Of a DNA stretch of 43,412 nucleotides, positions 5,150 to 42,141 are shown one piece after another (the first letter of the stretch is position 1; each line of letters begins with the position of its first letter). Under the pieces are notes generated by a model that saw nothing but the letters and a program-made list of their open reading frames with translations, made no database searches and was not told the DNA's origin. This DNA is from a virus (Duplodnaviria; Heunggongvirae; Uroviricota; Caudoviricetes), in the IMG/VR virus record IMGVR_UViG_3300048854_000273, positions 1 through 43,412 of that record; one strand, 5' to 3'. A program made the translations under genes and the position numbers.

Positions 5150-5167
5150 ATAGTCAGTTTCTACTAT
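5150..5167. promoter_or_regulatory. Palindromic motif copy 1 (ATAGTCAGTTTCTACTAT, degenerate), overlapping minus-strand -10 TATACT (5147-5152)
   Basis: 16/18 match to consensus, 15 bp downstream of the primase stop. Confidence 0.7.
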
Positions 5168-5181
5168 CCTTTTCGGCGAAA

Positions 5182-6264
5182 TCATCGGCCTTTTGTGAGC
5201 TTCATGCGGGTTGCCGTCATCGGGTTTATTACCGTCGCGCGCCAGAAGGCATCCCGCACGACCGACGGTGCCACTTCGTTGGGGTCGCGGTCCTTTGGCA
5301 GCACCGCAACGCGGGCAACCATGCCATGCCCCTTGATCATCAGCGCCGTCTCGATCGCGGCGTCGATAGCCTTATCCTCGCCATCCCACATGATCGTGAC
5401 CTGCTCCAACCCCTTCTCGCGCAGCTCCACCAGCTTTGCCATCTGTGACTGGTCATCGCCGTTGGATAGATGCTTGCCGAAGCTGCCGATCGGAACCACG
5501 TCGCGCAGATTCATGTCGCCATCAAGAGCGATCTTGGTTGCGGCGACGTCGAACACGCCTTCCCCGATACACACCCGCTTCGCGCCGATGGCGTTCTGCC
5601 CGTTGTAGAGGACCGAGCCTGTCGATGCGAACCCAGGCGGAAACAGATACTTCTTGTCGGCCTCGCCGGTAATGTCCCGGCCCTGAAACGTGACGAGGTC
5701 GCCTTCAAGGTCAAAGACCGGGATGATCACGCGGTTGGCGTAGTTCTGCACGCGCCGGCTGCCGTCATCGTCCATGTAGAAGAACTTGCCCTTCTGCGAG
5801 AAGCGCAGGCTGAAATACGACGAGATCGTGCCGGTGATGTTGCGACGGTCCAGATACTTCAGGTTGCGCCCGCTGTGCGGCAACGCAATCGACTCGGGCA
5901 GCTTGAGTTCGGTGTTTAGATTAACGGCGACAGCCTTCTTTTTCGCCGGTCGCCATCCCTGCTGTTTAGCGAACTGCTTGATGTGGTCAACCACGTCGCG
6001 GTTGCTGGTCGCGTTCAGCGAAGCCCGGATGAAGCTCCACTTGTTGAACTTGGCTTCGCAATCGCCTGAAAAGCAGTTGCCAAAGCCGGTCTCGAGGCCG
6101 ATATACACCTTCCAGTTCGAGTTGCCACAGCATGGGCATTCCTTGACGTTAGCCTGCCGGCCACGCGCACCGCGCGCCTGCTTGTAGACCACGCCCTGAT
6201 CATCGAGCCAGGACTCGATATCGATCTGGTCGAGCGCTTCCTGGAGTTCCGCGTTATCGCTCAT
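5182..6264 (-). CDS. dnaG: DNA primase (Zn finger plus TOPRIM)
   Basis: CPCC...C zinc finger, IIPVFD..G....FQGR, TOPRIM EGVFD...WDGED. Confidence 0.88.
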   Translation of the reverse strand: MSDNAELQEALDQIDIESWLDDQGVVYKQARGARGRQANVKECPCCGNSNWKVYIGLETGFGNCFSGDCEAKFNKWSFIRASLNATSNRDVVDHIKQFAKQQGWRPAKKKAVAVNLNTELKLPESIALPHSGRNLKYLDRRNITGTISSYFSLRFSQKGKFFYMDDDGSRRVQNYANRVIIPVFDLEGDLVTFQGRDITGEADKKYLFPPGFASTGSVLYNGQNAIGAKRVCIGEGVFDVAATKIALDGDMNLRDVVPIGSFGKHLSNGDDQSQMAKLVELREKGLEQVTIMWDGEDKAIDAAIETALMIKGHGMVARVAVLPKDRDPNEVAPSVVRDAFWRATVINPMTATRMKLTKGR

Positions 6265-6342
6265 ACGTCACACATTGTTAGTCAGTTACGCGCACGATAC
6301 GCGTAGAAATCAGGGGGTTGTGAGCCCCCTATAAAAGTGCCG

Positions 6343-6591
6343 TCAGAACCTGCCGATTCGATTTCCAAGCACGCCAGAAAGCTCGCGCATCAGGGCATAT
6401 TGGTAACGCATATCGAACTTTTCCTCCTCGACCAGATTGGCGAAGATGGAAGTGTCGAAGAATGCGCTCAGCTTCCCCATGCGCTCGTCGTTCTGCGCCT
6501 TTTCATCGACCACGCGCTGCTGGTGCGGCGGTAGCGTGCCGTATTCTTTCGCGATCACTTCCTTTTCTTTTTCACCGTTATTGACGCCCAT
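6343..6591 (-). CDS. Small helical protein, crAss001_48-like
   Basis: PPHQQRVVDEK...L..F...F......Q...M..L..VL..RI pattern recalled for this family; not searched. Confidence 0.6.
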   Translation of the reverse strand: MGVNNGEKEKEVIAKEYGTLPPHQQRVVDEKAQNDERMGKLSAFFDTSIFANLVEEEKFDMRYQYALMRELSGVLGNRIGRF

Positions 6592-8000
6592 TATTCGACC
6601 CTTATGATGGATTTGATAAACGTCATGGTTGCCATGTCCTGCTGGATAAACACGGTAAACCCTGACTCCTGGTTCCGGGACGCCGCGAAGTAAAGCCGTG
6701 CCTCGTTCTTGGTGCGTTCTTCGTCGGTGATGTTGATGGAGATCACCAAGTCGGCAATACGGATGCGGTTAAAGTCTTCCGCGACGTGCTCGGCTTTCGC
6801 CACCGTTGACTTGAAGCCTTCCCGGTTCGTCTGAGTTGCCGACAGCATCGCGAACCCTTCAATCAGCGCAATCGCCCGCATATCCGTGTAGATGGATTTC
6901 GAGTTCTCCACCGAGTCCTGCGAGCGGAAGTTCGGCGCCATAATGTCGAGGTAGTCGACCACCACCAGATCGAAGACGATGCCCTTCGCCTTGTAGCGGT
7001 CGATCAGCGCCTGCATGGAGTTCGGCGTGAACTTCGACGAGGCGAATTCATGCACCCGCAGCAGCCCCGCGCGCTTGCTCAGTGCCTCAATCTTGGTGCG
7101 CACATCGTGGATGTTCTTGCCAAGTTCCTTGATGATGTTCTCGGAGATCGACGCATCCAGACGCTCGGAGATAATCCGGGCCGCGAGCTCCAGCGTCACA
7201 TACAGGACGTTCTTGCCCGCCATCGAAGCGCTCTTTGCGAAGTTGATGAGGGCGGTCGACTTACCCGCTTTCGCTCCGCCCATCAGCAGCGTGAGTTCCT
7301 TGCGGCCCCAGCCCTTGTGCATCAGTAGCTCGTCCAGCTTGGGCAGCCCCGACGAGATACCCTTCGGCGGCGTCTTGCCGCTGGCTTCATCGAGGCGTTC
7401 TTCTGTGCGGGCCTCGATCATGCTCCAGTAGTCGTAGCCCTCGTCGGCCTCATTCAGACCGACGTCATAGGCGTCCTTGATCGCCTTGAGGATCGGATCG
7501 AACTTCTTCTTCTCCAGCAGGCTGACGGACGACAGGATGGCCTGACTGACTGCCTGGTGACGGGCGAATTCGGCCACCTTCTCGGCGACATACTCGCGGT
7601 CTCCGACCGAACCATCCTTCATGGTCTTGTATGCGCGCACCACTTCGGCTGCGACGTCCTTTTTCATGCGGGCGTTCGTGACGGCATCGCGGATCAGGGT
7701 CGGGACAACCGATGCATCAGGAACGCGCTTGAACCGCTCGTAATAGCGCAGCACCAGATCCATCATCCCGGCTTCACCGGTTGACTCGAAGTATTCGGGC
7801 TTCAGCAGGTGCGCGGCGCGGCGCATGAATTCAGTGTCACGCAGCGCGAGCGTGGCGATAGTGGTCTGGAACTGCTCGTCAAACTCGAACTTCTCAACCT
7901 CGAAAGCCTCTTCCGGCGCGTCGGTGGCGGCGCCGGCATACGCGGCACCCACCATCTTCGCGACCGAGTCCTCGACTGCGTCAATGGTGGCAGCGCTCAT
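6591..8000 (-). CDS. dnaB: DnaB-like replicative helicase
   Basis: Walker A GGAKAGKS, YVTLE, Walker B VVVDYLD, SATQTNR, ADLVI motifs. Confidence 0.92.
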   Translation of the reverse strand: MSAATIDAVEDSVAKMVGAAYAGAATDAPEEAFEVEKFEFDEQFQTTIATLALRDTEFMRRAAHLLKPEYFESTGEAGMMDLVLRYYERFKRVPDASVVPTLIRDAVTNARMKKDVAAEVVRAYKTMKDGSVGDREYVAEKVAEFARHQAVSQAILSSVSLLEKKKFDPILKAIKDAYDVGLNEADEGYDYWSMIEARTEERLDEASGKTPPKGISSGLPKLDELLMHKGWGRKELTLLMGGAKAGKSTALINFAKSASMAGKNVLYVTLELAARIISERLDASISENIIKELGKNIHDVRTKIEALSKRAGLLRVHEFASSKFTPNSMQALIDRYKAKGIVFDLVVVDYLDIMAPNFRSQDSVENSKSIYTDMRAIALIEGFAMLSATQTNREGFKSTVAKAEHVAEDFNRIRIADLVISINITDEERTKNEARLYFAASRNQESGFTVFIQQDMATMTFIKSIIRVE

Positions 8001-8422
8001 GCCGCGAGCTCCGCACTGGATTCAACCGGCATCACACGCGGCCGCGGCAGCGGGGAGAAGCGTTGGACCGCGTGCTTGAAGATCACCTCGGTTGTGCCCT
8101 TCACGTCCAGCGAGATCGTGTATTTGTCCGTTGCACGAATCTTGCCCTGCAGCGGCTCCAGCAGATCGAGCAGGTAGACGCGAATCTCAGCGCCGGACTC
8201 GTGCAGCGCCTTCAGGAAGGCTTCGTGACCTTTGGGAGCACCTGTGGGCTTTGCACGGGTCGAAGCGCGTGCCAGCGGGGCGCTGGCGCGGCTCGCGGGG
8301 GCTTCGTAATCGCGGCGGGTGCCCAGACGCGGGCGAAAGGTGGGGAGTGCGTCACCGTCGTCGCGAGCCAGGCGTAGGCCTTCGCGAAGCTGTTCGGCGC
8401 GTTCTTGATCGGAATTCATCAT
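7997..8422 (-). CDS. hfq: Hfq-like Sm-fold RNA-binding protein with basic N-terminal extension
   Basis: HEAFLKAL..IRVYL..LQGKI..DKYTISL..VIFKHAV aligns by eye with Hfq QDPFLNAL..VSIYL..LQGQI..DQFVILL..MVYKHAI; start at 8422 or 8419 after GGAGAG. Confidence 0.8.
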   Translation of the reverse strand: MMNSDQERAEQLREGLRLARDDGDALPTFRPRLGTRRDYEAPASRASAPLARASTRAKPTGAPKGHEAFLKALHESGAEIRVYLLDLLEPLQGKIRATDKYTISLDVKGTTEVIFKHAVQRFSPLPRPRVMPVESSAELAA

Positions 8423-8480
8423 GCAGCTCTCCAACATTGGGAAATGGGTCAGTCAAACGTTTTGCAGCGACACACTCAGT

Positions 8481-8498
8481 ATAGTCAGTTTTGACTAT
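8481..8498. promoter_or_regulatory. Palindromic motif copy 2 (perfect ATAGTCAGTTTTGACTAT), overlapping -10 TATACT (8478-8483) and the upstream stop codon
   Basis: Exact consensus upstream of hfq-dnaB. Confidence 0.85.
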
Positions 8499-9232
8499 CA
8501 TTGAGCGGCAAGCGACACCGCTGCATCGACGAGTCCCGGTGGAAACTCCCTGAGCGCGGCTTCAATTCGCAGCACCCCGTAGGTGTAGAGGGCTGCGCTC
8601 AGCGAATGCTGCTTGTGGATGCGCTGCTTGATCTGGCCGATGAGGAAGTTTTCATAGGCGATCTGGTCCGTATGGCCAAACCAGTTCTTGGCCAGATACC
8701 GCTCGTCCTTGCAGATTTGCAGGCTGTTATGGCACTCCTCCTCCCAGGCAAGGCCAACGTCGACCAGCAGCTCCTCATTGGCGTTGATATGCGAGGGGCG
8801 CGGCGCGTGATGCCAGTTATGGGCCACCTTCCAGCTCATCGCCTGACGCAGAAAAAATTCGTATCTCATGCCGGCTGCGTCTGCCGTTTGTCGGAGCTGC
8901 CAGAGTGCCTTGCGCTCTTTCGCATCCATGAAATCGTCGCTCGTGCCCTTGAACGGTCGCATGTATTGCCCCCGCACGTGATCGAACGTCATGCGCATGA
9001 AGTCCTTGTAGGCCCGGTCGTAGCACTTCGCGAACAGGTAAGTCGCCTTCGTCGGGTGCATCCGGCGATAGTCGAACCACTTGGTCGTCAGTAACTCCGG
9101 CTCCTTCTTCAGCAGCTTGCCGTCAATGTTCTGGATCGCCTTGATCTCGCAATGCAGGAACGACATGTCGTGCCCATAGAAGTCGCCGAACCATTCCGCG
9201 AGTCTGGGTTCCGTGATTAGCGTTTGGGTCAT
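8498..9232 (-). CDS. Conserved-looking phage hypothetical protein (244 aa) heading the hfq-dnaB-primase cluster
   Basis: Long aromatic-rich ORF with GAAAGGA RBS; function not recognised. Confidence 0.75.
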   Translation of the reverse strand: MTQTLITEPRLAEWFGDFYGHDMSFLHCEIKAIQNIDGKLLKKEPELLTTKWFDYRRMHPTKATYLFAKCYDRAYKDFMRMTFDHVRGQYMRPFKGTSDDFMDAKERKALWQLRQTADAAGMRYEFFLRQAMSWKVAHNWHHAPRPSHINANEELLVDVGLAWEEECHNSLQICKDERYLAKNWFGHTDQIAYENFLIGQIKQRIHKQHSLSAALYTYGVLRIEAALREFPPGLVDAAVSLAAQ

Positions 9233-9245
9233 CCTTTCCGCCTCG

Positions 9246-9300
9246 AAAATACTTAAATAAGAGTTACTTAAATGTAGTCTTATTATTCTTTAATACATAC
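9246..9300. promoter_or_regulatory. AT-rich regulatory patch with a TACTTAAAT direct repeat (9250-9258, 9265-9273)
   Basis: Sharp AT-rich island in a GC-rich genome, directly upstream of the 244-aa gene. Confidence 0.5.
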
Positions 9301-9347
9301 GGGAATGACACGGGAGCCCAGGTGGGAGACCAAGTTACCCAAGTGAC

Positions 9348-9370
9348 AGCGGCCCCAGAACGGAGCCGCT
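9348..9370 (-). terminator. GC-rich hairpin downstream of acb2 (AGCGGCTCC-GTTCT-GGGGCCGCT); weak U-tract
   Basis: 9-bp stem including one G-U pair. Confidence 0.35.
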
Positions 9371-9395
9371 TTCCTTCAAAAAGAGACTGCGGACC

Positions 9396-9620
9396 CTAGA
9401 AAGTTGTGGGTTGAGCCACACCCCTAACGAGAGCCATGATCCCGGTCTGGAGATCCGTGGCCCCGATTGAGATCCAGCGTTGGTCGAGTCCCTGCGCCGC
9501 TCGCAGCTCCGCCACCAGTTCACCCAGCTCCGAACCCTTCGCCTTGATCTTGTTCATCAGGTCGATCTCGTTCTGGGACAGGTCGCGATAGCCTGAGATT
9601 TTCGTGTGCTGGTCTTTCAT
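9396..9620 (-). CDS. acb2: Acb2-like cyclic-oligonucleotide sponge (anti-CBASS), 74 aa
   Basis: MKDQHTKISGYRDLSQNEIDLMNKIK...RWISIGATDLQTGIMALVRGVAQPTTF matches the recalled Acb2 pattern [26 protein letters not shown]...[27 protein letters not shown]; the true start is the ATG overlapping the phoH stop (the track ORF is over-extended). Confidence 0.85.
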   Translation of the reverse strand: MKDQHTKISGYRDLSQNEIDLMNKIKAKGSELGELVAELRAAQGLDQRWISIGATDLQTGIMALVRGVAQPTTF

Positions 9621-10393
9621 GCGGCTTCCTTCAGAGGTTGGTATTCGGCGGCGTATGCCTCGAGGATTTCCTGGATCACGCCGTGGCGCACGATGTCCTT
9701 CTTCTGGAACTCTACGTGACCGATCGACGGAATCCACGAGAGTCGCTCAACAGCGTCCTTCAGACCCGACTTGCCACGGATATCGACCTGCTCGACGTCG
9801 CCGTTGATGACCATGCGAGAGCCTTCGCCGATGCGGGTCAGGAACATCTTCATCTGTTCGGGCGTGGTGTTCTGCGCCTCATCCAGGATCACGACCGCGT
9901 TCTTGAACGTGCGGCCGCGCATATAGGCAAGCGGTGCTCCCTCGATGTTCCCCGCGCGCTTGTGATACTCGTAGGCGCCGGACCCGAGCCGCTCGATCAG
10001 CGCCTCCTCGAATGGGATAAGGTAGTGAGCGAACTTCTCTTCCATTTCCCCCGGCAGAAAGCCCAGGCTCTCGCCCGCCTCCACCGCCGGCCGTGTCACG
10101 ATGACCTTGTCGATCAGCTTGTCGCGCAGGGCATCAGCAGCGAGGGACGCGCAGACCCACGTTTTGCCGGTGCCGGCGGGGCCGGTCGCAAATGTGATTG
10201 TCTTGCCCTTGATGGACGCGATGTAGCGTCCCTGAGCGTCTGTGCGAGCGCGAATCGGTTCATAGCATGCGCGCACCTTTTCGACCCGCTCAGCTTGAGC
10301 TGCGGCATTGTGAAGTGCGGTATGGTCCTCATTGCGCCGACGGTCGGCACGTTGCTTCTGGCGGGTCTGGTGTTGCTGCTTCTGGCGGGGCAT
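9617..10393 (-). CDS. phoH: PhoH-family ATPase
   Basis: GPAGTGKT, TRPAVEAGESLGFLPG, YMRGRTF, ILDEAQN, MKMFLTRIG, NGDVEQVD. Confidence 0.95.
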   Translation of the reverse strand: MPRQKQQHQTRQKQRADRRRNEDHTALHNAAAQAERVEKVRACYEPIRARTDAQGRYIASIKGKTITFATGPAGTGKTWVCASLAADALRDKLIDKVIVTRPAVEAGESLGFLPGEMEEKFAHYLIPFEEALIERLGSGAYEYHKRAGNIEGAPLAYMRGRTFKNAVVILDEAQNTTPEQMKMFLTRIGEGSRMVINGDVEQVDIRGKSGLKDAVERLSWIPSIGHVEFQKKDIVRHGVIQEILEAYAAEYQPLKEAA

Positions 10394-10429: not shown

Positions 10430-10447
10430 TAAGTCAGTTTTGACTGT
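10430..10447. promoter_or_regulatory. Palindromic motif copy 3 (TAAGTCAGTTTTGACTGT) in the spacer of putative promoter TAGAAA-17-TATGAT for phoH-acb2
   Basis: Exact 14-bp core; -10 at 10426-10431 on minus strand. Confidence 0.8.
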
Positions 10448-10845: not shown

Positions 10846-12168
10846 TCAGCACGCCACTCGCTGATTTGGCAAAACCAGCGCCTTGACCACCGAATGGTCC
10901 ATCTCCGCAACTTCCCGGTAATACCACTTTCCGCCCGAGACCGCAAAGTCCGTCACCGGCACATAGTCGAAGTTGGTCGCCCGCGTCTCGGTGTCCACAT
11001 TGACCAGCGCGAAGCCGTTATGCCAGCGCTCGCCCTCGCAGTAGGAGGCGCTACGCTTGTGACCGCTGCCAAGCTGGTGCCATTCATAGGCGCCGTAGAT
11101 CGGGCTGAACTGACTCCAGACCTGATGGCGGTGATGATGACCATTCACACCCGGCAGGCCCATATTGCGAGCGTGCGGGAAGTGATGGCACAGCACTGTG
11201 TCGAAGTAGACCCTGTAGTTATTGGCCAGCTCGTTCTCGAAGTCGCGCTTGGTGAAGGCAGCAAGATCAGCCTTGGCGACGTAGTTGATCTCGAACTTGT
11301 CGAGACCCAGCAGCTTGCTCACCGTCATGCCATGCAGGTCCGAGAGAACCGCGCGTAGCGCTGGCGTTGCATCGGCCATGTGCCGCAGCAGCCGGGCTTC
11401 GTGGTTGCCTTCAATAAAGTCTATTTGCGCGTTCGGACAAACCTTGCGAAGCGGCGCGAAAATGTTGTCGTGCGTGAAGCGGATACGGCCGGTCACGTCC
11501 CACTCACGCGGGTCGACGCCGTATTTCCCGAATTCAGGCAGGTCGAGCACGTCACCGTTGAAGACGATCACGTCCGGCTGCACGCGCTTGGCCGTATCGA
11601 TCAGCACACGCAGGTAGAACAGGTCGACCTCCTTGTCGTGCAGGTCCGAGCACACCAGGATTGTCTTGAAGCGGCTTGCGTTCGTGCGCACGTAGCGCTC
11701 AGCCCAGTCCCGGCGGTCCACATTCAGACGACGGTAGTGGTCGACGGAAACGTGCTTGGCAAGGTTGCGTTCGTGGGCGTGCTGCTGGCGCGTCAGTTCG
11801 AGCTGAGCCTGGCGGCGGAATTCATGAAAAGAGCCAAAGTGGCAGTTCCACGCCGACTCTGCAAGTGGCCCTTCACGGCGAAAGCGGTCGCGAGTGACCT
11901 GGCGCTCGGGATTCAGAAGCGCGAACGTGCGCAGCGCCTCGATACATTCTTCAGGCGTGGCTTTGACGATCCGCTCAACGTTCTCCGACATGGGCAGTTC
12001 AATACCGCTGCGGTTGATAACCTTGCCCGCGTATTCCTTCATCCGGCGGATTGCGACCGCCTTGTTCTTGACCGTCTGCGCCGAGAGACCAAGCTCCCGC
12101 GCAACGTCCTGCATGGTCGGAAAGCGCTTCGTGTTGTTGAAAGTCTTGACGAATTGGTCGTGCAGCAT
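10846..12168 (-). CDS. N-terminal HTH fused to calcineurin-like metallophosphoesterase
   Basis: HTH-like PTMQDVARELGLSAQTV; metallophosphoesterase motifs SDLH, NGD, EGNHE, GHHH. Confidence 0.82.
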   Translation of the reverse strand: MLHDQFVKTFNNTKRFPTMQDVARELGLSAQTVKNKAVAIRRMKEYAGKVINRSGIELPMSENVERIVKATPEECIEALRTFALLNPERQVTRDRFRREGPLAESAWNCHFGSFHEFRRQAQLELTRQQHAHERNLAKHVSVDHYRRLNVDRRDWAERYVRTNASRFKTILVCSDLHDKEVDLFYLRVLIDTAKRVQPDVIVFNGDVLDLPEFGKYGVDPREWDVTGRIRFTHDNIFAPLRKVCPNAQIDFIEGNHEARLLRHMADATPALRAVLSDLHGMTVSKLLGLDKFEINYVAKADLAAFTKRDFENELANNYRVYFDTVLCHHFPHARNMGLPGVNGHHHRHQVWSQFSPIYGAYEWHQLGSGHKRSASYCEGERWHNGFALVNVDTETRATNFDYVPVTDFAVSGGKWYYREVAEMDHSVVKALVLPNQRVAC

Positions 12169-12796: not shown

Positions 12797-13029
12797 TAGC
12801 TTCCTTTCGGTTTGGGCTCGGTCAGTGCCTTGCCGGCGATCGTCACGCCCGCGGCGGTCAGAAACTCCGTCCACGAGCGTGTCATCACGCCAAAGTCGAA
12901 ATTGATCCCCTTGTAAGCCGTCCAGCCGCTCGCGGAGAGCAGGACAACGAACACCAGGAACCACCAGATTCGAAGCGGACACGGTGTATCGTTGTCGCGC
13001 TCGGTGAGAAATCGTGGAAAGAACTTCAT
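12796..13029 (-). CDS. Putative holin (77 aa, 2 TM, basic C-tail)
   Basis: Two hydrophobic segments, located between endolysin and spanins. Confidence 0.7.
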   Translation of the reverse strand: MKFFPRFLTERDNDTPCPLRIWWFLVFVVLLSASGWTAYKGINFDFGVMTRSWTEFLTAAGVTIAGKALTEPKPKGS

Positions 13030-13562
13030 GCAGCCACCCCCAGAAACTCAGCCTTCTCCGCGAGACGTCGGCGCAACAGCCCCGCGACGTGCTGGCCGCC
13101 CGCCATGTCCCATTTCTGGAACTCATTGGCAGCCGCAGCGTGGTTGCCAGAATTGAGCAGCTTGAGCATGGTCGAGCCAGCGAATGCGGCCACACCGAGG
13201 TTGAACACGAAGTCCACCAGTGCGTCGAATTCACCCTGTGTCAGCGGCGTCGTCACGAGATGATTGACAGCGGCGACTGCACCCGCCGTATCCGCGAGCA
13301 GTTGCGCGTCTGCCTGCGCCTGGGTCCAGACGAGGCCGTAATGGACTTCGGGGCCGGTATGGCCCCATGCGATCGTCCAAGGCGCTCCCGAAAGGATCAG
13401 TAGCGATTGCGGGATTGCCCCACCGGCGATCACCGAGCGCCACATGCCGCGTGCGATCAGAGCCTTGCCAAGCGGGGAAGCCGGGTCCGGGTAAGCCTTC
13501 AGACAGCAGCTTTCAAAACCCTGCGTGACGGCGAGACCCGTCTTCGAGTATTGCATTGTCAT
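13026..13562 (-). CDS. Endolysin, GH24/T4-lysozyme-like muramidase (start 13562 or 13556)
   Basis: FE-x8-D catalytic pair, PWTIAWGHT, QGEFDALVDFVFNLG, GLLRRRLAE. Confidence 0.92.
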   Translation of the reverse strand: MTMQYSKTGLAVTQGFESCCLKAYPDPASPLGKALIARGMWRSVIAGGAIPQSLLILSGAPWTIAWGHTGPEVHYGLVWTQAQADAQLLADTAGAVAAVNHLVTTPLTQGEFDALVDFVFNLGVAAFAGSTMLKLLNSGNHAAAANEFQKWDMAGGQHVAGLLRRRLAEKAEFLGVAA

Positions 13563-13578
13563 AGTCAGTTTTGACTAC
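13561..13578. promoter_or_regulatory. Palindromic motif copy 4 (ATAGTCAGTTTTGACTAC), filling the intergenic gap and overlapping the endolysin ATG
   Basis: 17/18 match to consensus. Confidence 0.85.
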
Positions 13579-13981: not shown

Positions 13982-14023
13982 AAAATGAAAACGGCGGCAA
14001 GTCAGTTTTGACTGTTGCCGCCG
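13982..14023 (-). terminator. Rho-independent terminator whose upper stem-loop is motif copy 5 (13998-14015)
   Basis: Minus strand CGGCGGCA-AC-AGTCA-AAAC-TGACT-TGCCGCCG-TTTTCATTTT. Confidence 0.8.
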
Positions 14024-14394: not shown

Positions 14395-14412
14395 AAAGTC
14401 AGTTTTGAGTGT
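14395..14412. promoter_or_regulatory. Palindromic motif copy 6 (AAAGTCAGTTTTGAGTGT, degenerate)
   Basis: 13/14 core match in an intergenic gap. Confidence 0.7.
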
Positions 14413-14428: not shown

Positions 14429-14896
14429 TTAGGCCAGCGCCGTCTGTGGAATTGTTGCAACCACGTCGTGCGTAACTACGGCGGCGAACGTGTTCGGGTC
14501 ATAGCGCCACGATTCCGCGTAGCCCAACGCCTCGGCCACGGACTCGGAACAGAACCACTCGCCCTTCTCGCCCTCGTAGTGACGGAACACGAAGCCGAAC
14601 AGACCCGCCACGTCATACGGCTGGCCGGCATGCGCTTCGAACCAGGCAACCGCCGCGGTCTCCTGTTCAGGCGTCGTCGCGATATCGATCACGTCCCAGT
14701 CGGCCGGATCGAGGCTGATGACAGTGCGGCGCACGCCCTTGTCCAGGTAGGCCGAGGACCAGCAGACAGCCATGTCGTTCTCGTATCCGGTGACGAGTTC
14801 GCAATGACTGTAGGCGCCGCGCGTCCACCATTTCGTCAAGACTCCCAGCCAACCCTTGATGCCTGGGTGTCGCCCTTTGAAGAATGCAATTTTCAT
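14429..14896 (-). CDS. Permuted papain-like NlpC/P60 (YiiX-type) protein, 155 aa from MKIAFF
   Basis: N-terminal SHCE (His) precedes C-terminal WFCSE (Cys), with the GQPYD motif between them. Confidence 0.7.
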   Translation of the reverse strand: MKIAFFKGRHPGIKGWLGVLTKWWTRGAYSHCELVTGYENDMAVCWSSAYLDKGVRRTVISLDPADWDVIDIATTPEQETAAVAWFEAHAGQPYDVAGLFGFVFRHYEGEKGEWFCSESVAEALGYAESWRYDPNTFAAVVTHDVVATIPQTALA

Positions 14897-20817: not shown

Positions 20818-20847
20818 ATTATACAGTCAGTTTTGACTGTTGAACAA
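20818..20847 (-). promoter_or_regulatory. Sigma70-like promoter TTGTTC-18-TATAAT for the tail fibre, with motif copy 7 (20823-20840, ACAGTCAGTTTTGACTGT) as its spacer
   Basis: Perfect TATAAT at 20818-20823 abutting the palindrome. Confidence 0.8.
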
Positions 20848-27629: not shown

Positions 27630-27996
27630 AGAAGCCGACAATCCGATTTTTCCAGTGCTCTAGCCGCTCGATCACCACCCCACCCGACTGCTGCCAGGTA
27701 TGGATGAACCTATAGTCAGTTTTGACTATCCCAACATGCGTAATAAAGCGCCCTGTCTTGAACATCACTATCGAGCCGGTTTTCGGCTGTTCGAGACGCT
27801 TCCAGAAGAACGCGGAACCGACCATCAGCGCCTGAATTGCCCCCTGATCTGCCGGTGCGCCGTAGTCGGGCACCAAAATGCCCGAATCGCGCTCGATGAT
27901 GTAGCGGCACAGGCCATAGCAGTCGAAACTTGCCGGGCCACGGCCACCACGCTCGAATGGAATGCCGATCAAGTCGGTATCTGTGAGATATTCCAT
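27598..27996 (-). CDS. NlpC/P60 tail tip protein (lambda K-like)
   Basis: IGIPFERGGR....FDCYGL...HVGI....FIH catalytic Cys/His pattern. Confidence 0.88.
   Translation of the reverse strand: MEYLTDTDLIGIPFERGGRGPASFDCYGLCRYIIERDSGILVPDYGAPADQGAIQALMVGSAFFWKRLEQPKTGSIVMFKTGRFITHVGIVKTDYRFIHTWQQSGGVVIERLEHWKNRIVGFYEYCADEGQA
27712..27729. promoter_or_regulatory. Palindromic motif copy 8 (perfect) inside the NlpC/P60 CDS, encoding IVKTDY
   Basis: ATA GTC AAA ACT GAC TAT in frame on the minus strand. Confidence 0.8.
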
Positions 27997-28012
27997 AGTC
28001 AGTTTTGACTGT
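27995..28012. promoter_or_regulatory. Palindromic motif copy 9 (ATAGTCAGTTTTGACTGT) overlapping the NlpC/P60 ATG
   Basis: 17/18 match; fills most of the 20-bp gap. Confidence 0.85.
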
Positions 28013-34536: not shown

Positions 34537-34554
34537 ATAGTCAGTTTTGACTGT
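34537..34554. promoter_or_regulatory. Palindromic motif copy 10 (ATAGTCAGTTTTGACTGT) overlapping -10 TATCTT (34534-34539)
   Basis: 8 bp after the tail tube stop. Confidence 0.85.
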
Positions 34555-34562: not shown

Positions 34563-35096
34563 TTACGGCGTTGTGGGTGGCGTAGGTGCCGTGCCGACGC
34601 GGAACAGCTTCTGCGTGACCGGGTCCGGGTAGCCGGTAAAGTCCACGCTGTAGACGCGTTCCTTCTCGACGTCGTAGGAGAAGTCGAGCGCGCCGGCCGT
34701 TGCCGCCAGCGGAATCACGAAGTCTTCCGAGTAGTCGTCGGCCGCTTTCGCGATCGGGTGCAGGCGCAGCTCCTTCGCGATCGACAGCAGGTCGGTGCCG
34801 ATGCCCACGCTCACGTCCACGCTCTTGGCCTGGGTGGTCGCGTCGGTCGTCAGGGTCGCGCCCGGCATGATGTTCACCATGTTTTCCAGCGTCGTTTCCG
34901 CGAGCGGCACCTTCACCGTCACGTCGCGCTGCATGATGATTTCGTTGATAGTGGTCTTGCCGAACTGATCGACGTTGACCTTGTGGGTGTCGGTTTTCAC
35001 GGTCACCTGGACGCCGCCCTGGGTGTAGCCCAGATCAACGCCGTCGAAGAAGACCGAGCAGACACCCAACTTCACATTCTTGGTATCGCTTGCCAC
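34563..35096 (-). CDS. Major tail tube protein (177 aa, GTG start)
   Basis: AAGGAG RBS; DLGYTQGGV.V...VDQFG...V..PLAE..L.N tube motif. Confidence 0.85.
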   Translation of the reverse strand: MASDTKNVKLGVCSVFFDGVDLGYTQGGVQVTVKTDTHKVNVDQFGKTTINEIIMQRDVTVKVPLAETTLENMVNIMPGATLTTDATTQAKSVDVSVGIGTDLLSIAKELRLHPIAKAADDYSEDFVIPLAATAGALDFSYDVEKERVYSVDFTGYPDPVTQKLFRVGTAPTPPTTP

Positions 35097-35124
35097 TCTA
35101 AACTCCTTTGCAAAGAGGTTTCGG

Positions 35125-35159
35125 ATAGTCAATTTTGACTATCGCGCGAGTCTACCACA
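35125..35159 (-). promoter_or_regulatory. Extended -10 TGTGGTAGACT (35149-35159) with motif copy 11 (35125-35142, ATAGTCAATTTTGACTAT) at about +1 to +18
   Basis: Extends to the 20-bp palindrome GATAGTCAA-TT-TTGACTATC. Confidence 0.75.
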
Positions 35160-35176: not shown

Positions 35177-35659
35177 CTAGATAGCCTTCTGGCAGGCTGT
35201 CGTGAGGTTGGCGAGCAGCTCCTTCTCGATCTCATCGGAGGCACGCTCCAGATATTTGCCGCCCACCTTGCCGCTACCGCCGTCCTTCTCCTGCGACTTC
35301 GGTCCCAATTGCAGCGGGCCGGCCGGTGTCAGGTGCTCATGCATTTCCCATGCGTAGTCCCCCACCGTCTTGCCGGGACGCTCCCTGCCGTTCGAGTCGT
35401 GCGCGGGGAGTGTCTCGTCCACATACACCTCGATGCTCTTGCGGGCGAACTGCCCGCGATCGTTGCGGCCGCCGCCGGCTTCACGCACCTTGATCGCCTT
35501 CTCCAGGTCGCCATGATCGACCGGCGCGTTCTCGCGGGCCTTTTCTGCGAGCTTTTCCGCCTCAACCTTCATCTGGGCGTAGATGCCGCGCACCGCCTTC
35601 TCACCCACCTGCTGCAACAGCACGCCCAGGTTGTCGGTCCCTTCGATCGTCACGCTCAT
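35177..35659 (-). CDS. HK97 gp10-like neck/tail-completion protein (160 aa from MSVTIE)
   Basis: ARENAPVDHGDLEKAI...YAWEMHE...GGKYLERA pattern. Confidence 0.75.
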   Translation of the reverse strand: MSVTIEGTDNLGVLLQQVGEKAVRGIYAQMKVEAEKLAEKARENAPVDHGDLEKAIKVREAGGGRNDRGQFARKSIEVYVDETLPAHDSNGRERPGKTVGDYAWEMHEHLTPAGPLQLGPKSQEKDGGSGKVGGKYLERASDEIEKELLANLTTACQKAI

Positions 35660-36051
35660 GGCAGCTCCTCTGTATCGACATAGCAAAGCTCGAAGTTGGT
35701 GCTCCACTCCGTCAGGTTTGCGCTCGACAGCGGGAACGGGACGGGCAGCGCAAGAGGGCGGCAGTAGTTGATCTTCATCGTGCCGATGACCGTATCCGCC
35801 GGCACCTTCAGCACGGCCATTGCCTGCTTGATGAGGGTCTGCCCCGCGTCGTAGGTCGGCGCGCGCGCAATCACCTGAAAGCGGGCGCGGTAGAAGCCCG
35901 GCAGGTAGTTATCGATCGGCACGCCGGAAAGCGGCGTGCGCAGCATCACGGCCGTTGTCACCGCCGTCGGCATTTGGTCGACGAAAAGCGAAGCGCCCTG
36001 CTCGCCCAGACCGGCGTCCTCGAGGCGCTGTGTGAGAAGCTGAAGGTTCAT
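35656..36051 (-). CDS. Tail terminator-like protein (131 aa)
   Basis: RFQVIARA..YD.G..L pattern typical of terminator/gp17-like proteins. Confidence 0.65.
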   Translation of the reverse strand: MNLQLLTQRLEDAGLGEQGASLFVDQMPTAVTTAVMLRTPLSGVPIDNYLPGFYRARFQVIARAPTYDAGQTLIKQAMAVLKVPADTVIGTMKINYCRPLALPVPFPLSSANLTEWSTNFELCYVDTEELP

Positions 36052-38386: not shown

Positions 38387-38415
38387 ATGATAGTCAGTTT
38401 TGACTATCCCAACAA
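38387..38415 (-). promoter_or_regulatory. Motif copy 12 (38390-38407, perfect) within putative promoter TTGTTG-17-TATCAT
   Basis: Exact consensus 8 bp after the capsid stop; -10 at 38387-38392. Confidence 0.85.
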
Positions 38416-39327
38416 TTAAATGTTGGAAACGCCTTGCAGACGTGCGATCGAACGCGTGGACTTCAGCGCGAGGCCGGTATACCACTTCAGGCGGATACGC
38501 GTTGCGTCCTTGTTCTGCACCGTGCCGATGTTCTCGACCACGATACCCGCGTCGCCACCGCCGTAGATGCCGTGCAGGCCATCCAGCTCATTCAGGCGCA
38601 GCGCGTAGACCGAACACAGGTTCGAGCCGGTGCCGACACTTTCGTTAGCGCCGAGGAACTCGTTCATGATGATCGGAATGCCGTTGTGTGTGAGCATCGG
38701 GCGGCCGAAGTTCTGCAACTGCTGCATCACAGCGTCGGTGCCGTAGGTCGCGCGCAGCAGGCCGCGGAATGCGCGGATCGTGCCACGACGCATCACCAGC
38801 ACGTCAGCGCCGTTCGGCACTGCGTCGAGCAGCTCGTCCAGCATCGTCAGCGTGAGTGCATTGCCATTCGCGCCAGCGTTGATCGTCTGCGTGCCGCCAG
38901 CCTGAACAGCCAGATTCGGCAGACCGTCGAACGCTTTCGGGTTCGCGGTTGCGTCGCCCGTTGCCAGCGTCTGGTGGAACACGCGCGCAACACCCTTGGC
39001 CTTCTTGGCGATCTGGATCGCCATCTGGTCGTTGGTGTCGCTTTCGGTCGACTGCAGGAACTTGTCGACGTCCACGTCGCCCGCCAGGATGCGCAGCTTC
39101 GTCACGACTTCCGTCACGGTCGATGCACTTTCGTTCACCGTATCGTTCGGGTCGAGGAAGTCAGCGCCTGCCAGCGAGTCTTCGCGGTTGTAGACATACG
39201 CCTTGCCGTTCACGCCGACAAAGGGCAGGACCGAGAACAGGTCGTCGCGGTCGATGATTTCGTCGATAACGCCAGCGACCAACTGGTTGTTGCTCAGCAG
39301 GTCGGCCGTATCTTTCAAAAGAGGCAT
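38416..39327 (-). CDS. Major capsid protein (HK97 fold, 303 aa)
   Basis: Follows the scaffold; AAAGGA RBS; FDGL motif; recalled similarity to SSU5-type capsids. Confidence 0.9.
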   Translation of the reverse strand: MPLLKDTADLLSNNQLVAGVIDEIIDRDDLFSVLPFVGVNGKAYVYNREDSLAGADFLDPNDTVNESASTVTEVVTKLRILAGDVDVDKFLQSTESDTNDQMAIQIAKKAKGVARVFHQTLATGDATANPKAFDGLPNLAVQAGGTQTINAGANGNALTLTMLDELLDAVPNGADVLVMRRGTIRAFRGLLRATYGTDAVMQQLQNFGRPMLTHNGIPIIMNEFLGANESVGTGSNLCSVYALRLNELDGLHGIYGGGDAGIVVENIGTVQNKDATRIRLKWYTGLALKSTRSIARLQGVSNI

Positions 39328-39409: not shown

Positions 39410-39454
39410 AAAGGGGCGCTTTGAACAGTCAGTTATTACTATCGTAAGCGCCCC
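39409..39454 (-). terminator. Terminator GGGGCGCTT...AAGCGCCCC-TTTT whose 24-nt loop holds motif copy 13 (39425-39442, ACAGTCAGTTATTACTAT)
   Basis: 9-bp perfect inverted repeat flanking a degenerate motif, 7 bp after the scaffold stop. Confidence 0.7.
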
Positions 39455-39461: not shown

Positions 39462-40385
39462 TCAGCCGTTCAACTTCACATTCAGCCCCTTCAGGCCCGC
39501 TGCGATGCGCGAAAGACCCTTCGACGAGCCCTCAGCCTGTTCGATCGTCGTCACCTTGGCGCTGGCAAGACGCGAGTCGGAACCGGCGCCGGGCTTCACT
39601 TTGCTCTTGAACAGATGATCCTTCTCGGGGTCGGCCTCGACGATCTTGCGCAGCGCCTCGTCAAAGCTCATGGCTGCGCCCGAACCGTTGACGATCATCG
39701 TGCGCTCGGTCGCGCCCTTCGGCTTGTCGTATGCAACGACCTTGCCGTCGACCAGCTCGAAGTGGTCGCCGTAAATCACGCGCGCCTTGGCCGGCGTCAG
39801 AGCCAGTTCTGCGCTGATGAACTGCGACTGCGAGAACTGCGTGCCGACGGTCAATTCGTTGATCACACCGTCGCGCTGGCCGAGCTGCGCCTGGAGCGCG
39901 TCGATCTTTTCCTGCAAGGTCTTCTTTTCCTTGCCGTGTTCGTCGGCCATGCGCTCTTTCAGGCGCGACCACTCGCCCTTCGCTTCGAGTGCGGCGGTTT
40001 CGGCGTCCTGCTTTTCCTTCAGCAGCGCGCGCACCGCTTCCGGGTCGATACCTTCGAACTTCTTCAGTTGCTCCTGGGCTGTCGACAGTGCCGCATTGGC
40101 CTCGTCGAGCTTGCCCTTTTTCTGCATCACTTCCTTCAGCAGCTTGGCTTCTTCGTCAGTCGGCTTGCGATCACCGCCGCCCTGCTTTGCCCGCTCGGCC
40201 GCCGCGGCCGCTTCTGCCGCTTCGGCGTCGGCTGCCTCTGCTGCTGCCTTAGCGGCAGCTGTCTTGGCGGCTTCAGCGGCCAGGCCAGCAGCAATTGCAG
40301 CGGCACCGCCCGATTTCGTGCCGTCGTCGCCCGCCGCATCCATGTAGCGTTGGGCCATCATCAGTTTGCGCAGAAGGTGAGTCAT
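39462..40385 (-). CDS. Capsid scaffolding protein (DUF4355-like)
   Basis: Ala/Glu/Lys coiled coil between portal and capsid; C-terminal L...G tail. Confidence 0.82.
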   Translation of the reverse strand: MTHLLRKLMMAQRYMDAAGDDGTKSGGAAAIAAGLAAEAAKTAAAKAAAEAADAEAAEAAAAAERAKQGGGDRKPTDEEAKLLKEVMQKKGKLDEANAALSTAQEQLKKFEGIDPEAVRALLKEKQDAETAALEAKGEWSRLKERMADEHGKEKKTLQEKIDALQAQLGQRDGVINELTVGTQFSQSQFISAELALTPAKARVIYGDHFELVDGKVVAYDKPKGATERTMIVNGSGAAMSFDEALRKIVEADPEKDHLFKSKVKPGAGSDSRLASAKVTTIEQAEGSSKGLSRIAAGLKGLNVKLNG

Positions 40386-40427: not shown

Positions 40428-40455
40428 AATGCCGGCCCATCACTTGGCCGGCGTT
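40428..40455. terminator. Hairpin GCCGGCC-N8-GGCCGGC with flanking A/T runs after the portal stop
   Basis: 7-bp perfect stem, extendable by AAAT/GTTT. Confidence 0.55.
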
Positions 40456-40459
40456 TGGT

Positions 40460-42082
40460 TTAGCCTTCCGACTTCGTGGTTAGCGACTCGCTCGCCAACG
40501 CGCGGTCGGAAGATTTCTGGAGCTGCTGTTGCGTGCCCGCCTGGGCTTGAGCAACCAGTGGGTCCACCGGCGGCCAGTCATTCAGGTCAGCGAGGATCTT
40601 GTCCTTGATGCCTTTGGCGAGTTGCGGGAACAATTTGTCGATCACTGCCTTCATCTGTTCCTGACGCAGTGAGTCCGGCGCCTCGATCAGCGAAAGACGA
40701 GCGGCAATGTCGAACTCGTCGTAGAGCCCGCGGGTGTCAAAATCGTCCGGGTAGGTCACAAACTGCTTGTCGTCGGAGAGCGGTTCCCCGTTCCAGAGCG
40801 CGACCAGAGCCGCGATCTTGTTCTCGATCGACTGCAGTGAGTCCGCCTTGGCCGCCAACAGAGCGTTCACTCGCTCGAAGTCGTATGCCTTGGCTACACC
40901 GGAGCTGTTGTCGATCCCGAGCGAGTTGTCCTGTTTGGTGCGCTCGCCTGCGAGACCAACTGTGTGATAAATCTCGTTGATGATCTTGTGGATCACCGCG
41001 AGGATCATCTGGGCCTGTTTAGGGTCCGGGGAAATGTATTTGGGCTCGCCACCCTCGCCGTCGTAGAGGAAGATGCGCTTGGTGCCCATCTCCATCATCT
41101 TCGTGTAGTTGTCGTCGCCAGGCATCATGCCCTGCGCCGGCATTGCGAGCTGGCTGAACGTCTGGTCCTGAATGATGGCGTCGAGGTTCGACAGGTAGTT
41201 GCCCACCGCGCGATCGAGGTAGGCAATGTCGTCGATCATCGACGGCGCAACGTAAAGCTCGTCCGAGATCACGTGGTCCGCCAAGATCACCGGCACCACA
41301 CCCAACTGATGGTTGCCCTCGCCGATCTGCACCACCTTCATTTTCTTGCCCTTGCCCTGCAGCTCGAAAAGGCGCCAGTCCATCTTGGTCCAGAGCCGGA
41401 AGCGTTGCAGAACCGCGCCGCTCGACGTCATCGGGTCGGCGTCGTCGCGCGCCGTCTCCTGGATCAGTGCCCAGTTCAGCGCGCCCATGCCGTCGTAGCT
41501 GTAGTCGAGCAACTGCTCGGGACCGACGAGATAGGCATAAGTCATGACGCCGGCAGCCCGCTCCTCGGCTTTGGTCTGCACCGCGTCGGTCTTCGTGTTG
41601 TCGATCACGATGCCGATGCGGCCCTGCCGGGAGGTGCGTGAGGCGATCTGTCGCGCGAAGTCCTGGATGCCGAGCCCGTTGCGGGTGCTTTTCAGCCAGA
41701 ACTGCTTCACGCAGTCAGGCGCGTCTTCCGTGTTGCGGGTGATCGCCTGCTTGAACAGATATTTGTTCAGCAGGTCGACGACTTCCTTTGTGTGGTTGAA
41801 GCGATACGCCCGCGCGAGTCGGTCGTTGTATTCCTTGTCGCCTTCCTTGATGTAGCGGAACACATTGTCAGCAAACCACTCGCGGCCGCCTTCATACGTC
41901 TGCTCGATGAAGCGCCAGTGATCGACGTTGCACGCGTATTCCGGGTGACGGCGCGCAATCAGCGCGCGGAGCTTCTTCTGCTCATCGTCGGCGACAGGGG
42001 CGATCCCCATAGCGGCGGCAGACTCGACATCATTCGGGTCGATGGAGAACTGCTCGCCGGCGGTGAAGTTCGAAATATCCAT
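40460..42082 (-). CDS. Portal protein (540 aa)
   Basis: Size and position after terminase; RHPEY...W..I...YEGG, ERTKQDN..SSGVAKAYDF motifs. Confidence 0.88.
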   Translation of the reverse strand: MDISNFTAGEQFSIDPNDVESAAAMGIAPVADDEQKKLRALIARRHPEYACNVDHWRFIEQTYEGGREWFADNVFRYIKEGDKEYNDRLARAYRFNHTKEVVDLLNKYLFKQAITRNTEDAPDCVKQFWLKSTRNGLGIQDFARQIASRTSRQGRIGIVIDNTKTDAVQTKAEERAAGVMTYAYLVGPEQLLDYSYDGMGALNWALIQETARDDADPMTSSGAVLQRFRLWTKMDWRLFELQGKGKKMKVVQIGEGNHQLGVVPVILADHVISDELYVAPSMIDDIAYLDRAVGNYLSNLDAIIQDQTFSQLAMPAQGMMPGDDNYTKMMEMGTKRIFLYDGEGGEPKYISPDPKQAQMILAVIHKIINEIYHTVGLAGERTKQDNSLGIDNSSGVAKAYDFERVNALLAAKADSLQSIENKIAALVALWNGEPLSDDKQFVTYPDDFDTRGLYDEFDIAARLSLIEAPDSLRQEQMKAVIDKLFPQLAKGIKDKILADLNDWPPVDPLVAQAQAGTQQQLQKSSDRALASESLTTKSEG

Positions 42083-42090
42083 TGGTCGTG

Positions 42091-42141
42091 AGTATTGGTG
42101 AGGGTTGCTCTTTTGTCAACAGTCAGTTTTGACTGTATAAC
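42091..42141. promoter_or_regulatory. Motif copy 14 (42119-42136) with two overlapping divergent promoters: minus TTGACA-17-AATACT and plus TTGTCA-17-TATAAC
   Basis: Hexamers at 42114-42119/42091-42096 (minus) and 42113-42118/42136-42141 (plus). Confidence 0.7.

Follow-up and report, generated by a model that had tools for sequence, protein, structure and literature searches.

A genome-wide oriented near-palindrome in a Paraburkholderia-type prophage and its probable role as a set of dispersed operators for a Cro-like dimer

An 18-base near-palindrome recurs throughout an integrated prophage record of Paraburkholderia type (110,191 bp), where it precedes about one third of the genes, and its copies are probably the dispersed operators of a single phage-encoded HTH homodimer of the XRE/434-Cro type, acting in the manner of stoperators or of the C1 sites of P1. 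The candidate reader is a small protein of 132 aa, and we infer both its binding to these sites and its repressive effect. The motif was encountered in the window, the stretch of 43,412 nt of this record that was analysed.

A search of the window for the 14-bp core, allowing at most two mismatches, returned 14 matches on one strand, of which ten are exact, two carry one mismatch and two carry two, whereas dinucleotide-preserving shuffles gave a mean of 0.11 and a maximum of 2. The 14 co-oriented copies, ten with an exact core, reported in the first-pass annotation were recovered at the same coordinates, and its arithmetic (3e-4 copies expected by chance and an orientation probability of 1 in 8192) is correct. 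Every gene of the window lies on the minus strand, so that in gene sense the palindrome reads AYAGTCAAAACTGACTRT, with the consensus AYAGTCA-AAAC-TGACTRT in a 7+4+7 layout. Thirteen of the 14 copies are intergenic, as had been claimed, once over-extended ORF starts are corrected. The copies in the window are:

5150..5167, minus strand: two core mismatches; 14 nt past the stop of the primase-like gene 5182-6264; the WGR-domain gene 4614-5078 starts 71 nt further on
8481..8498, minus strand: exact; touches the stop codon of 8498-9232; the Hfq-like gene 7997-8437 follows after 43 nt
10430..10447, minus strand: exact; 36 nt ahead of the PhoH-like gene 9617-10393; GC hairpin after the motif
13561..13578, minus strand: exact; stop of the upstream gene 2 nt before the motif; in-frame ATG of 13026-13562 at motif position 17; G001 conserves a start that lies 4 nt past the motif
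13998..14015, minus strand: exact; forms the tip of a longer, terminator-like GC hairpin with a T-run behind it; about 69 nt to the likely ATG of the gene downstream
14395..14412, minus strand: one mismatch; 16 nt past the stop of 14429-14905 and 23 nt ahead of an ATG with a GGAG ribosome site
20823..20840, minus strand: exact; 38 nt ahead of the 1776-aa tail-fibre gene 15454-20784
27712..27729, minus strand: exact; the single intragenic copy, within the 3' part of 27598-27996; 70 nt ahead of the J-like central tail fibre gene 21438-27641
27995..28012, minus strand: exact; nearly fills the 20-nt gap past gene 28017-28652; ATG of 27598-27996 at motif position 17, without a Shine-Dalgarno sequence
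34537..34554, minus strand: exact; 8 nt past the stop of the Ig-domain tail tube gene 34563-35132, with a GC hairpin directly after (a stop-motif-hairpin cassette)
35125..35142, minus strand: one mismatch, spacer AAAT; 34 nt past the stop of 35177-35707 and about 31 nt ahead of a GTG with the ribosome site AAGGAG, where the tail tube gene likely starts
38390..38407, minus strand: exact; 8 nt past the stop of the major head protein gene 38416-39327, with a hairpin and T-run directly after (intrinsic-terminator-like)
39425..39442, minus strand: two mismatches; separates the scaffold gene 39462-40385 from the head protein gene and makes up the loop of a 9-bp GC hairpin, with a T-run behind it
42119..42136, minus strand: exact; 8 nt past the stop of the large terminase gene 42145-43569 and 36 nt ahead of the portal gene 40460-42082

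The asymmetry of the near-palindrome is confined to its 4-bp spacer, AAAC, which is as conserved as the 7-bp arms and strictly oriented with transcription; the arm centres are about 9-11 bp apart, and the A/T-rich flanks are symmetric. Only at copy 20823 does a TTGTTC-like hexamer pair with TATAAT such that the motif fills their 17-bp spacer exactly. A search of intergenic DNA for a further dyad motif yielded nothing but the palindrome, scans of the window for tRNAs and against Rfam gave no match, and neither flanking duplications nor longer repeat units were seen around the motif copies.

Across the whole record there are 46 copies, 42 oriented with minus-strand genes and four reversed. All four reversed copies adjoin the few plus-strand genes, an arrangement with a chance probability of about 2e-4, although three of these four copies are imperfect. 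It had been stated that strand and transcription direction cannot be separated; this holds within the window, with its minus-strand genes only, and is partly resolved by the reversed copies of the complete genome. Palindromes are found in the packaging, head, tail, lysis, nucleotide metabolism and replication modules as well as in the sigma-factor operon. The phage-wide regulon signal proposed from the window was borne out. In a Paraburkholderia genome of about 8 Mb, a related prophage of about 101 kb, integrated beside host pgsA and uvrC, holds 35 of the 39 AGTCA-N4-TGACT sites. The palindrome is therefore not a host factor site, and the equal frequency in the host chromosome for which a check had been suggested is not observed, with four of the 39 sites lying outside the prophage. 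Circularity, which in-frame ORFs at both ends of the record might suggest, was rejected, as this relative sits integrated in the chromosome and the record itself was extracted as a provirus with the cut at the integrase gene. Megablast with 25 kb of window sequence gave no match in a phage collection, and relatives were found by protein search. The motif family appears to be undescribed for the cultured relatives: no description of it was found in the literature on SSU5, RHEph10 and B1VFA, and the B1VFA genome paper makes no mention of it.

Comparison of the relatives shows that the 7+4+7 layout is kept while both arms vary in concert. The arms are AYAGTCA in genomes G000, G001 and G005, TAAGTCA in G003 and G004, TAAGTAA in B1VFA (40 copies), and TCAATCA in RHEph10, where a symmetric ATAT spacer makes the site fully symmetric. 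The gene sbcD is preceded by the palindrome in G000, G001, G005, G003 and B1VFA, each time in the arm version of its own genome. Such concerted change of both arms points to a symmetric dimer rather than to a sigma factor or an RNA hairpin as the reader or form of the site. B1VFA additionally carries a bipartite promoter-like element, consisting of CTCC, about 14 nt and GCGCTATAA, in 11 exact copies; a palindrome follows nine of these after 2-9 nt and is missing from the other two, and the remaining B1VFA palindromes have quite different flanks. As judged from sequence, the palindrome would be a separable module, located in B1VFA at or just past the predicted start point.

Among about 140 genes profiled over ten genomes, only two track the palindrome, found in every one of the eight genomes that carry it and in neither of the two that do not, nickie and SSU5:

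Genome 107275-107673, plus strand: candidate regulator, 132-aa HTH protein; outside the window, beside the int-xis-CI lysogeny module
Genome 102640-103287: phage sigma factor, 215 aa, sigma-70 family with only region 2 detectable

The two genes share this profile, and co-occurrence therefore cannot tell them apart. The HTH gene adjoins an integrase, an excisionase-like HTH_17 protein and a 215-aa HTH_3 protein, a temperate context, and in G000 it also adjoins a cluster of four sites, with similar clusters in G001 and G005. The AlphaFold model of the 132-aa protein (mean pLDDT 79.5) has 434 Cro as its top Foldseek match in the PDB (TM 0.83 on target, rmsd 1.5 A, 64 residues), with the 434 repressor, restriction-modification (R-M) controller proteins, SinR, DdrO and P22 c2 among the further best matches; its match to Pfam HTH_3 is weak (E = 0.002) and below the curated cut-off, and beyond the single 434-Cro-like HTH the C-terminal part is predicted to be helical. 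Homodimer prediction gave a score of 0.44 against 0.00 for the best of three controls, the mark used being reached by 21 of 30 one-chain pairs and by none of 23 proteins solved as single chains; at least 86% of contacts agree between runs, with a partner pLDDT of at least 81. XRE dimers are common among solved structures, so that this pass may partly reflect likeness. The recognition helix PN..SM and the arm sequence both barely vary over the eight genomes and 12 further loci. Other candidate readers were rejected: a Cys4 winged-helix protein encoded beside the sigma gene is kept by nickie, which lacks the palindrome, and a winged-helix protein (genome 44629-44955) and the ParB-like proteins fail on phyletic profile. 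The gene at 10846-12168, suggested as the binder in the first-pass annotation, encodes a metallophosphoesterase with a sub-threshold HTH-like match and is missing from palindrome-bearing B1VFA. The broader proposal of one dimeric regulator fared better and is most likely right, given the joint change of the arms, the co-occurrence of the Cro-like HTH gene and the predicted homodimer.

It is proposed that the 132-aa homodimer would occupy the 18-bp sites as double-stranded DNA, sitting on or just past transcription start points and blocking read-through in the short intergenic gaps, as stoperators and P1 C1 operators do. With a site ahead of about every third gene in every module, one protein could silence the whole lytic programme. 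The HTH gene and the palindrome are both kept in the integrase-less relatives RHEph10 and G001-G004; they therefore belong to the core of the clade, and lysogeny repression need not be the role of the protein. Immunity could instead rest with a separate CI-like protein of 215 aa. The oriented AAAC spacer is not explained by a symmetric dimer alone, and its polarity suggests either an orientation-dependent block or that a polar signal overlaps the site, for example a start point or -10-like element.

The proposed arrangement resembles repressor systems known to work genome-wide in other phages, but appears undescribed for the present group, and the analogies drawn earlier with stoperators and P1 C1 are apt as modes of action. 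The stoperators of Cluster A mycobacteriophages (L5 gp71, TipsytheTRex repressor) number in the dozens, with near-identical copies throughout the genome, each a 13-bp asymmetric sequence read by a monomer with two different DNA-binding domains (PMC9283540). Like these, the palindrome occurs in a temperate phage with an integrase as more than 20 near-identical sites, situated in promoters or short intergenic gaps of early and late modules, and its orientation correlates with the direction of transcription. In contrast to the 13-bp asymmetric stoperators, the site is an 18-bp near-palindrome; the candidate has one HTH, of 434-Cro-like type, lacks a stoperator domain and is predicted to pair as a homodimer, whereas the stoperator reader is a monomer with an HTH and a stoperator domain. 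Host phylum and phage lineage also differ, and a block to elongation would apply here only by analogy.

Closer in fold are the XRE dimers of 434, P22 and lambda (Cro/CI), with 434 Cro as the top structural match. The five-helix HTH_3 fold, the predicted homodimer and a two-fold symmetric site with half-sites about one helical turn apart are those of an XRE/434-type repressor and operator, and, by analogy with those palindromes with a non-contacted central spacer, the A-tract could tune affinity through indirect readout. Those phages have six operators in two control regions, in contrast to the 46 genome-wide sites with an oriented spacer found here. P1 operators are asymmetric 17-mers that are bound by a monomer and do not lie ahead of late structural operons. 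By analogy with P1 C1, one repressor may serve many scattered operators of unrelated operons in a genome of about 100 kb; unlike those of P1, the near-palindromic sites also precede late structural operons. The phage itself is a distant SSU5/P1-style large temperate phage. The C-boxes of R-M systems (C.Esp1396I, C.BclI) are likewise read by a small XRE dimer, with a structural match to the candidate, and have half-sites built from GACT and AGTC; their GACT-N3-AGTC form has the opposite half-site order and another spacing, and they number one or two per operon rather than forming a genome-wide set.

If one small dimer gates about 46 sites, the clade of RHEph10- and B1VFA-like rhizobiophages and Paraburkholderia prophages would hold a second, independently evolved case of whole-genome silencing by dispersed operators. 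In contrast to mycobacteriophage stoperators, its site would be one for a dimer, symmetric but for a polar spacer. In practice, the motif marks the boundaries of transcription units in poorly annotated 110-kb phages, the changes of arm sequence between relatives predict immunity groups, and the 18-mer with its protein could be a compact orthogonal switch.

A rather unlikely alternative is that the palindrome is itself a phage-specific promoter, read by host RNA polymerase with the 215-aa phage sigma, in which GTCAAA or the A..T of AYAGT would be the -10-like element, transcription would start inside the motif or at its 3' end, and the palindromic shape would be secondary. Besides the encoded sigma-70-family protein and its co-occurrence with the palindrome, several features are consistent with this: the orientation tracks transcription, no copy is nearer to its start codon than -2, two or three in-frame ATGs lie at motif position 17 without a ribosome site, as in leaderless mRNAs, position 17 is a purine after T in 38 of 46 copies, and the sequence 13-21 nt upstream holds a T-rich tract. 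The window shows no enrichment of sigma-70-type promoters (7 against 5.5 expected, and 0 against 3.5 expected), and no other conserved intergenic motif is found there, which leaves the palindrome as the sole candidate promoter signal in G000. However, sigma factors read asymmetric elements, whereas the arms change together between genomes and the RHEph10 site is fully symmetric; for this reason an ECF-type promoter with GTCAAA as its -10 was downgraded. No asymmetric -35/-10 pair was found at fixed spacing around the palindrome, matches to the sigma-70 consensus in the window are at chance level, and the distance of the upstream T-tract is variable (14-19 nt). A terminator hairpin directly after three of the copies (34537, 38390, 84434) makes little sense for a promoter, the sites occur across all gene classes including the sigma operon itself, and B1VFA has its distinct bipartite element upstream of the palindrome, sometimes without one. 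It is also conceivable, though unlikely, that palindrome, Cro-like dimer and phage sigma make up a self-contained transcription system in which one 18-bp cassette serves as promoter and operator genome-wide. All transcription units of these phages of about 110 kb would then start inside the palindrome, at the A-rich spacer; the sigma factor would read the left arm together with the oriented centre, and the Cro-like dimer would gate this same sequence.

The dimer evidence would also fit with the palindrome as the site of an activator, the same 132-aa HTH protein recruiting polymerase to promoters that lack a -35 element, so that the motif would mark units that are switched on instead of silenced; we regard this as distinctly unlikely. 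The models are the P1 Lpa late promoters, lambda CI at PRM and the R-M controller proteins, and XRE-type proteins such as controller proteins and lambda CI are able to activate. TAT plus three A/T-rich nt after the motif gives a -10-like hexamer in 14 of 46 copies, and the system is kept in the integrase-less relatives. Yet there is no -10 hexamer at a fixed distance, the final T being present in only 15 of 46 copies and TGT occurring in 14, and the symmetry of the A/T-rich flanks is as expected of protein contacts and not of a -10 element. Copies between -2 and 15 nt from start codons would place start points within ribosome sites or coding sequence, and in B1VFA the palindrome lies downstream of the -10-like element. 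The layout of P1 Lpa late promoters, invoked in the first-pass annotation, agrees in having an inverted repeat without a -35 element close to genes; P1 late promoters, however, carry a strong TATAAT at a fixed distance from the repeat, whereas here no sigma-70-type -10 element was found at such a distance, and the sites precede both early- and late-type genes.

An RNA hairpin with a 7-bp stem and an AAAC loop, serving in processing, as a stabiliser, as part of a terminator or as a protein-binding element, is very improbable. At least one copy, in the 30-nt gap ahead of sbcD, is transcribed, four of the 46 copies cap a longer hairpin, against 0.27 expected, and two of these four have T-runs, the loop is oriented, and the phage encodes an Hfq-like protein. 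Against this, no compensatory changes were seen in the stem among copies, positions 2 and 17, the variable pair, are not associated (Fisher p = 0.48), and pairing is broken by a change on one side in 7 copies (G-G) and in 9 (A-G). Most copies lack T-runs, some lie in divergent regions where no upstream transcript ends, and there is no Rfam match; RNase III needs a longer stem than this one. That the motif has no phage-specific function, being the site of a host transcription factor or a selfish miniature repeat, is scarcely credible; the repetitiveness alone speaks for this reading, which is already largely refuted by the distribution of sites in the 8-Mb lysogen genome and disagrees with the conservation of positions between relatives while the sequence co-evolves and with the lack of flanking duplications or longer repeat units. 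Among public sequencing runs, none of RNA was listed as containing the phage, and its DNA was observed in soil and plant metagenomes only.

The first-pass annotation had claimed 14 copies of an 18-bp near-palindrome (two 7-bp arms around a 4-bp spacer) in the window, ten of them with an exact 14-bp core, and all 14 were recovered position for position, with 10 exact cores, 2 with one mismatch and 2 with two; shuffled sequence gave a mean of 0.11 core matches over the same window. Because all credible window genes lie on the minus strand, the site reads AYAGTCA-AAAC-TGACTRT in gene sense.

Minus-strand genes of the window
Packaging and head: terminase, portal, scaffold, head protein
Tail: tail tube, tape measure, J-like fibre, 1776-aa fibre
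Other: PhoH, DnaB-like helicase, primase, ligase

Once ORF starts, which the mechanical caller over-extends, had been corrected, 13 of the 14 copies were intergenic, as had been claimed, the sole exception being copy 27712 within the 3' end of gene 27598-27996. The window makes up the opening 43 kb of a 110,191-bp virus record (G000); over this whole record, and allowing up to two mismatches, 42 copies share this orientation and 4 are reversed. Strand and transcription direction had been considered inseparable, and here the whole genome helps, as the four reversed copies adjoin plus-strand genes:

Reversed copy 1: within the plus-strand block at 50-53 kb
Reversed copy 2: ahead of a weak ORF on the plus strand, at 65.3 kb
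Reversed copies 3 and 4: ahead of the HTH gene on the plus strand, at 107.3 kb

Such placement beside the few plus-strand genes would arise at random about 2 times in 10,000; since three of the four copies are imperfect, support for an orientation that tracks transcription direction is moderate. The spacer is more variable in relatives, yet the gene-sense bias to NNAC over its complement persists.

The motif is a phage signal. The first-pass annotation had proposed a phage regulon and had counted an equal frequency of the motif in the host chromosome among the refuting observations, and the motif is not equally frequent there: in the Paraburkholderia lysogen GCA_047605525.1, a genome of about 8 Mb, 35 of 39 AGTCA-N4-TGACT sites fall inside a prophage of about 101 kb, and the motif therefore belongs to the phage. 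The portal is about 50% identical to those of Rhizobium phages RHEph10, RHph_N1_10 and B1VFA, Pseudomonas phage nickie and Salmonella phage SSU5, and the Paraburkholderia prophage just named, a close relative, adjoins pgsA and uvrC of its host chromosome. The phage is an integrated, temperate one; a circular record was considered and rejected, the record being a provirus cut out at its own integrase gene. The lysogeny module (genome 107933-110191, right end, outside the window; locus L184) comprises the following, where G001 and G005 are two of five related genomes (G001-G005):

408-aa tyrosine integrase, found among the relatives only in G005
114-aa HTH_17 excisionase-like protein
215-aa HTH_3 CI-like protein, its gene present only in G001 and G005

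One motif copy, 108622, lies in this module, 41 nt before the CI-like gene.

Across related genomes the 7+4+7 layout is kept and both arms are altered jointly.

Arm versions of the palindrome in related genomes
AYAGTCA: G000, G001, G005
TAAGTCA: G003, G004
TCAATCA, around a symmetric ATAT spacer: RHEph10
TAAGTAA: B1VFA, 40 copies

The gene sbcD is preceded by a site in G000, G001, G005, G003 and B1VFA, always in the arm version of its own genome. This comparison is decisive for the type of reader, as a symmetric, concerted arm change is predicted for a homodimeric DNA-binding protein and not for a sigma factor. It fits the single dimeric regulator put forward by the first-pass annotation, which had left silencing and activation side by side; for the candidate reader we infer repression.

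All of the approximately 140 genes were profiled against nine relatives, and only two occur in all genomes with the palindrome and are missing, like the palindrome itself, from nickie and SSU5 (NC_018843.1):

Genome 102640-103287, outside the window: phage sigma factor with only region 2 detectable, represented in G002 solely by a 210-aa ORF at the corresponding position
Genome 107275-107673, plus strand, outside the window: 132-aa HTH gene

The HTH gene always lies just upstream of a cobT-cobS-sigma-wH-dnaE block, and four sites within about 500 bp flank it in G000, with similar clusters in G001 and G005. Its product, the probable though by no means assured reader of an operator system, has a weak HTH_3 match, and a 65%-identical homologue is named at NCBI as a helix-turn-helix domain-containing protein of Paraburkholderia. 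The structural model is confident (pLDDT 79.5), and its N-terminal 65 residues superpose on 434 Cro (TM 0.83 on target, rmsd 1.5 A) as well as on other XRE dimers. A homodimer prediction passed with a score of 0.44 (best of 3 controls 0.00), a mark that 21 of 30 proteins solved as same-chain pairs attained and none of 23 solved as single chains; the runs gave at least 86% contact agreement and a partner pLDDT of at least 81, and the predicted interface is C-terminal. Part of this pass may be due to likeness with solved XRE dimers, as these are common among solved structures.

In every examined relative with the HTH gene, a 69-76-aa ORF (genome 106760-106987, minus strand, outside the window) separates that gene from cobT, as a positional orthologue of little sequence similarity, and its product might act with or against the regulator. 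A conserved 238-aa protein of phrog_3616, with no assigned family, follows the sigma factor (locus L005, genome 101914-103287), both lying within the cobT-cobS-sigma-wH-dnaE block; nickie keeps the phrog_3616 protein without the sigma factor, and SSU5 has neither.

A promoter role for the motif is unlikely and an activator site more so; both are retained on account of the sigma factor's phyletic profile, identical to that of the HTH gene, and of some observations in favour of a polar function that overlaps the site, for instance a start point within its A-rich centre. The AAAC spacer is strictly oriented and conserved, the distance from motif to start codons has a hard lower limit of -2 nt, and two or three ATGs that lack a ribosome site start at motif position 17. 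In G000, sigma-70-type promoters were not enriched, and no second conserved element was found beside the palindrome except A/T-rich flanks, which are symmetric, and an upstream T-tract whose position is loose. Rhizobium phage B1VFA (MT770738.1) carries 11 exact copies of a bipartite promoter-like element (CTCC, about 14 nt, GCGCTATAA), all on the same strand and close to the two genome ends (for example at 473, 4524, 20041, 104735 and 118921); the element does not match the rhizobial sigma-70 consensus. The palindrome follows 2-9 nt downstream in 9 of these copies and is missing after the other 2, and the remaining B1VFA palindromes have wholly different flanks, including stop-palindrome-hairpin cassettes after late genes; the palindrome is therefore a separable module. 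Its placement at or just after predicted start points is that expected of a repressor site.

A function as an RNA hairpin is very unlikely. No arm covariation was found among the motif copies; one-sided changes at positions 4/15 and 6/13 give G-G in 7 copies and A-G in 9, and no association is seen at 2/17, the one pair that varies often (p = 0.48). Rfam returned no match. A longer hairpin carries the motif at its tip in four of the 46 copies (0.27 expected), with T-runs in two of these (13998 and 39425). Three copies directly precede a terminator-like hairpin, each downstream of one of these genes:

Head protein
Tail tube
Ribonucleotide reductase large subunit (genome 84456-86717)

These hairpin-associated copies look like space-saving overlaps rather than the general function.

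On protein fold and operator symmetry, the modelled system would be placed in the XRE repressor-operator class, at an unusual genome-wide scale. The closest match in working is found in Cluster A mycobacteriophages, whose operators and stoperators are likewise many oriented intergenic sites in all modules of a temperate phage (PMC9283540), and P1 C1 operators are also resembled. These two analogies of the first-pass annotation hold for the manner of working and not for membership, because the palindrome here is of dimer type and has a Cro-like dimer as its candidate reader; the layout of P1 Lpa late promoters, also invoked, is not that of the palindrome. In the literature on the cultured relatives no description of the motif was found. 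SSU5 has over-represented palindromes of its own, AAACA-N3-TGTTT (14 copies, 0.18 expected) and TAAGT-N4-ACTTA (8 copies, 0.04 expected).

Other features near motif copies include an Hfq-like protein with a long N-terminal extension (window 7997-8437, minus strand; Pfam Hfq E = 8.6e-10), whose gene closely follows an exact motif copy and runs into the start of the DnaB-like helicase gene; homologues of the protein were found only in G001 and G005. An AT-rich non-coding stretch without the palindrome (window 9233-9395, minus strand), before gene 8498-9232, holds a terminator-like hairpin as well as two copies, 16 bp apart, of the direct repeat ATTTAAGTA, and may represent another type of promoter or control region. 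Outside the window, a homing-endonuclease gene of HNH/NUMOD4 type, opposite in strand (genome 53489-54070, plus strand), splits motif copy 54412 from the gene probably served (52963-53499) and has the appearance of a mobile insertion. Genome 49013-49399 and 52351-52731, also outside the window, encode a Tad2-like anti-Thoeris domain protein and a YspA/SLOG-family protein, and an Nmad5 protein (78229-52) together with ThyX suggests nucleotide modification.
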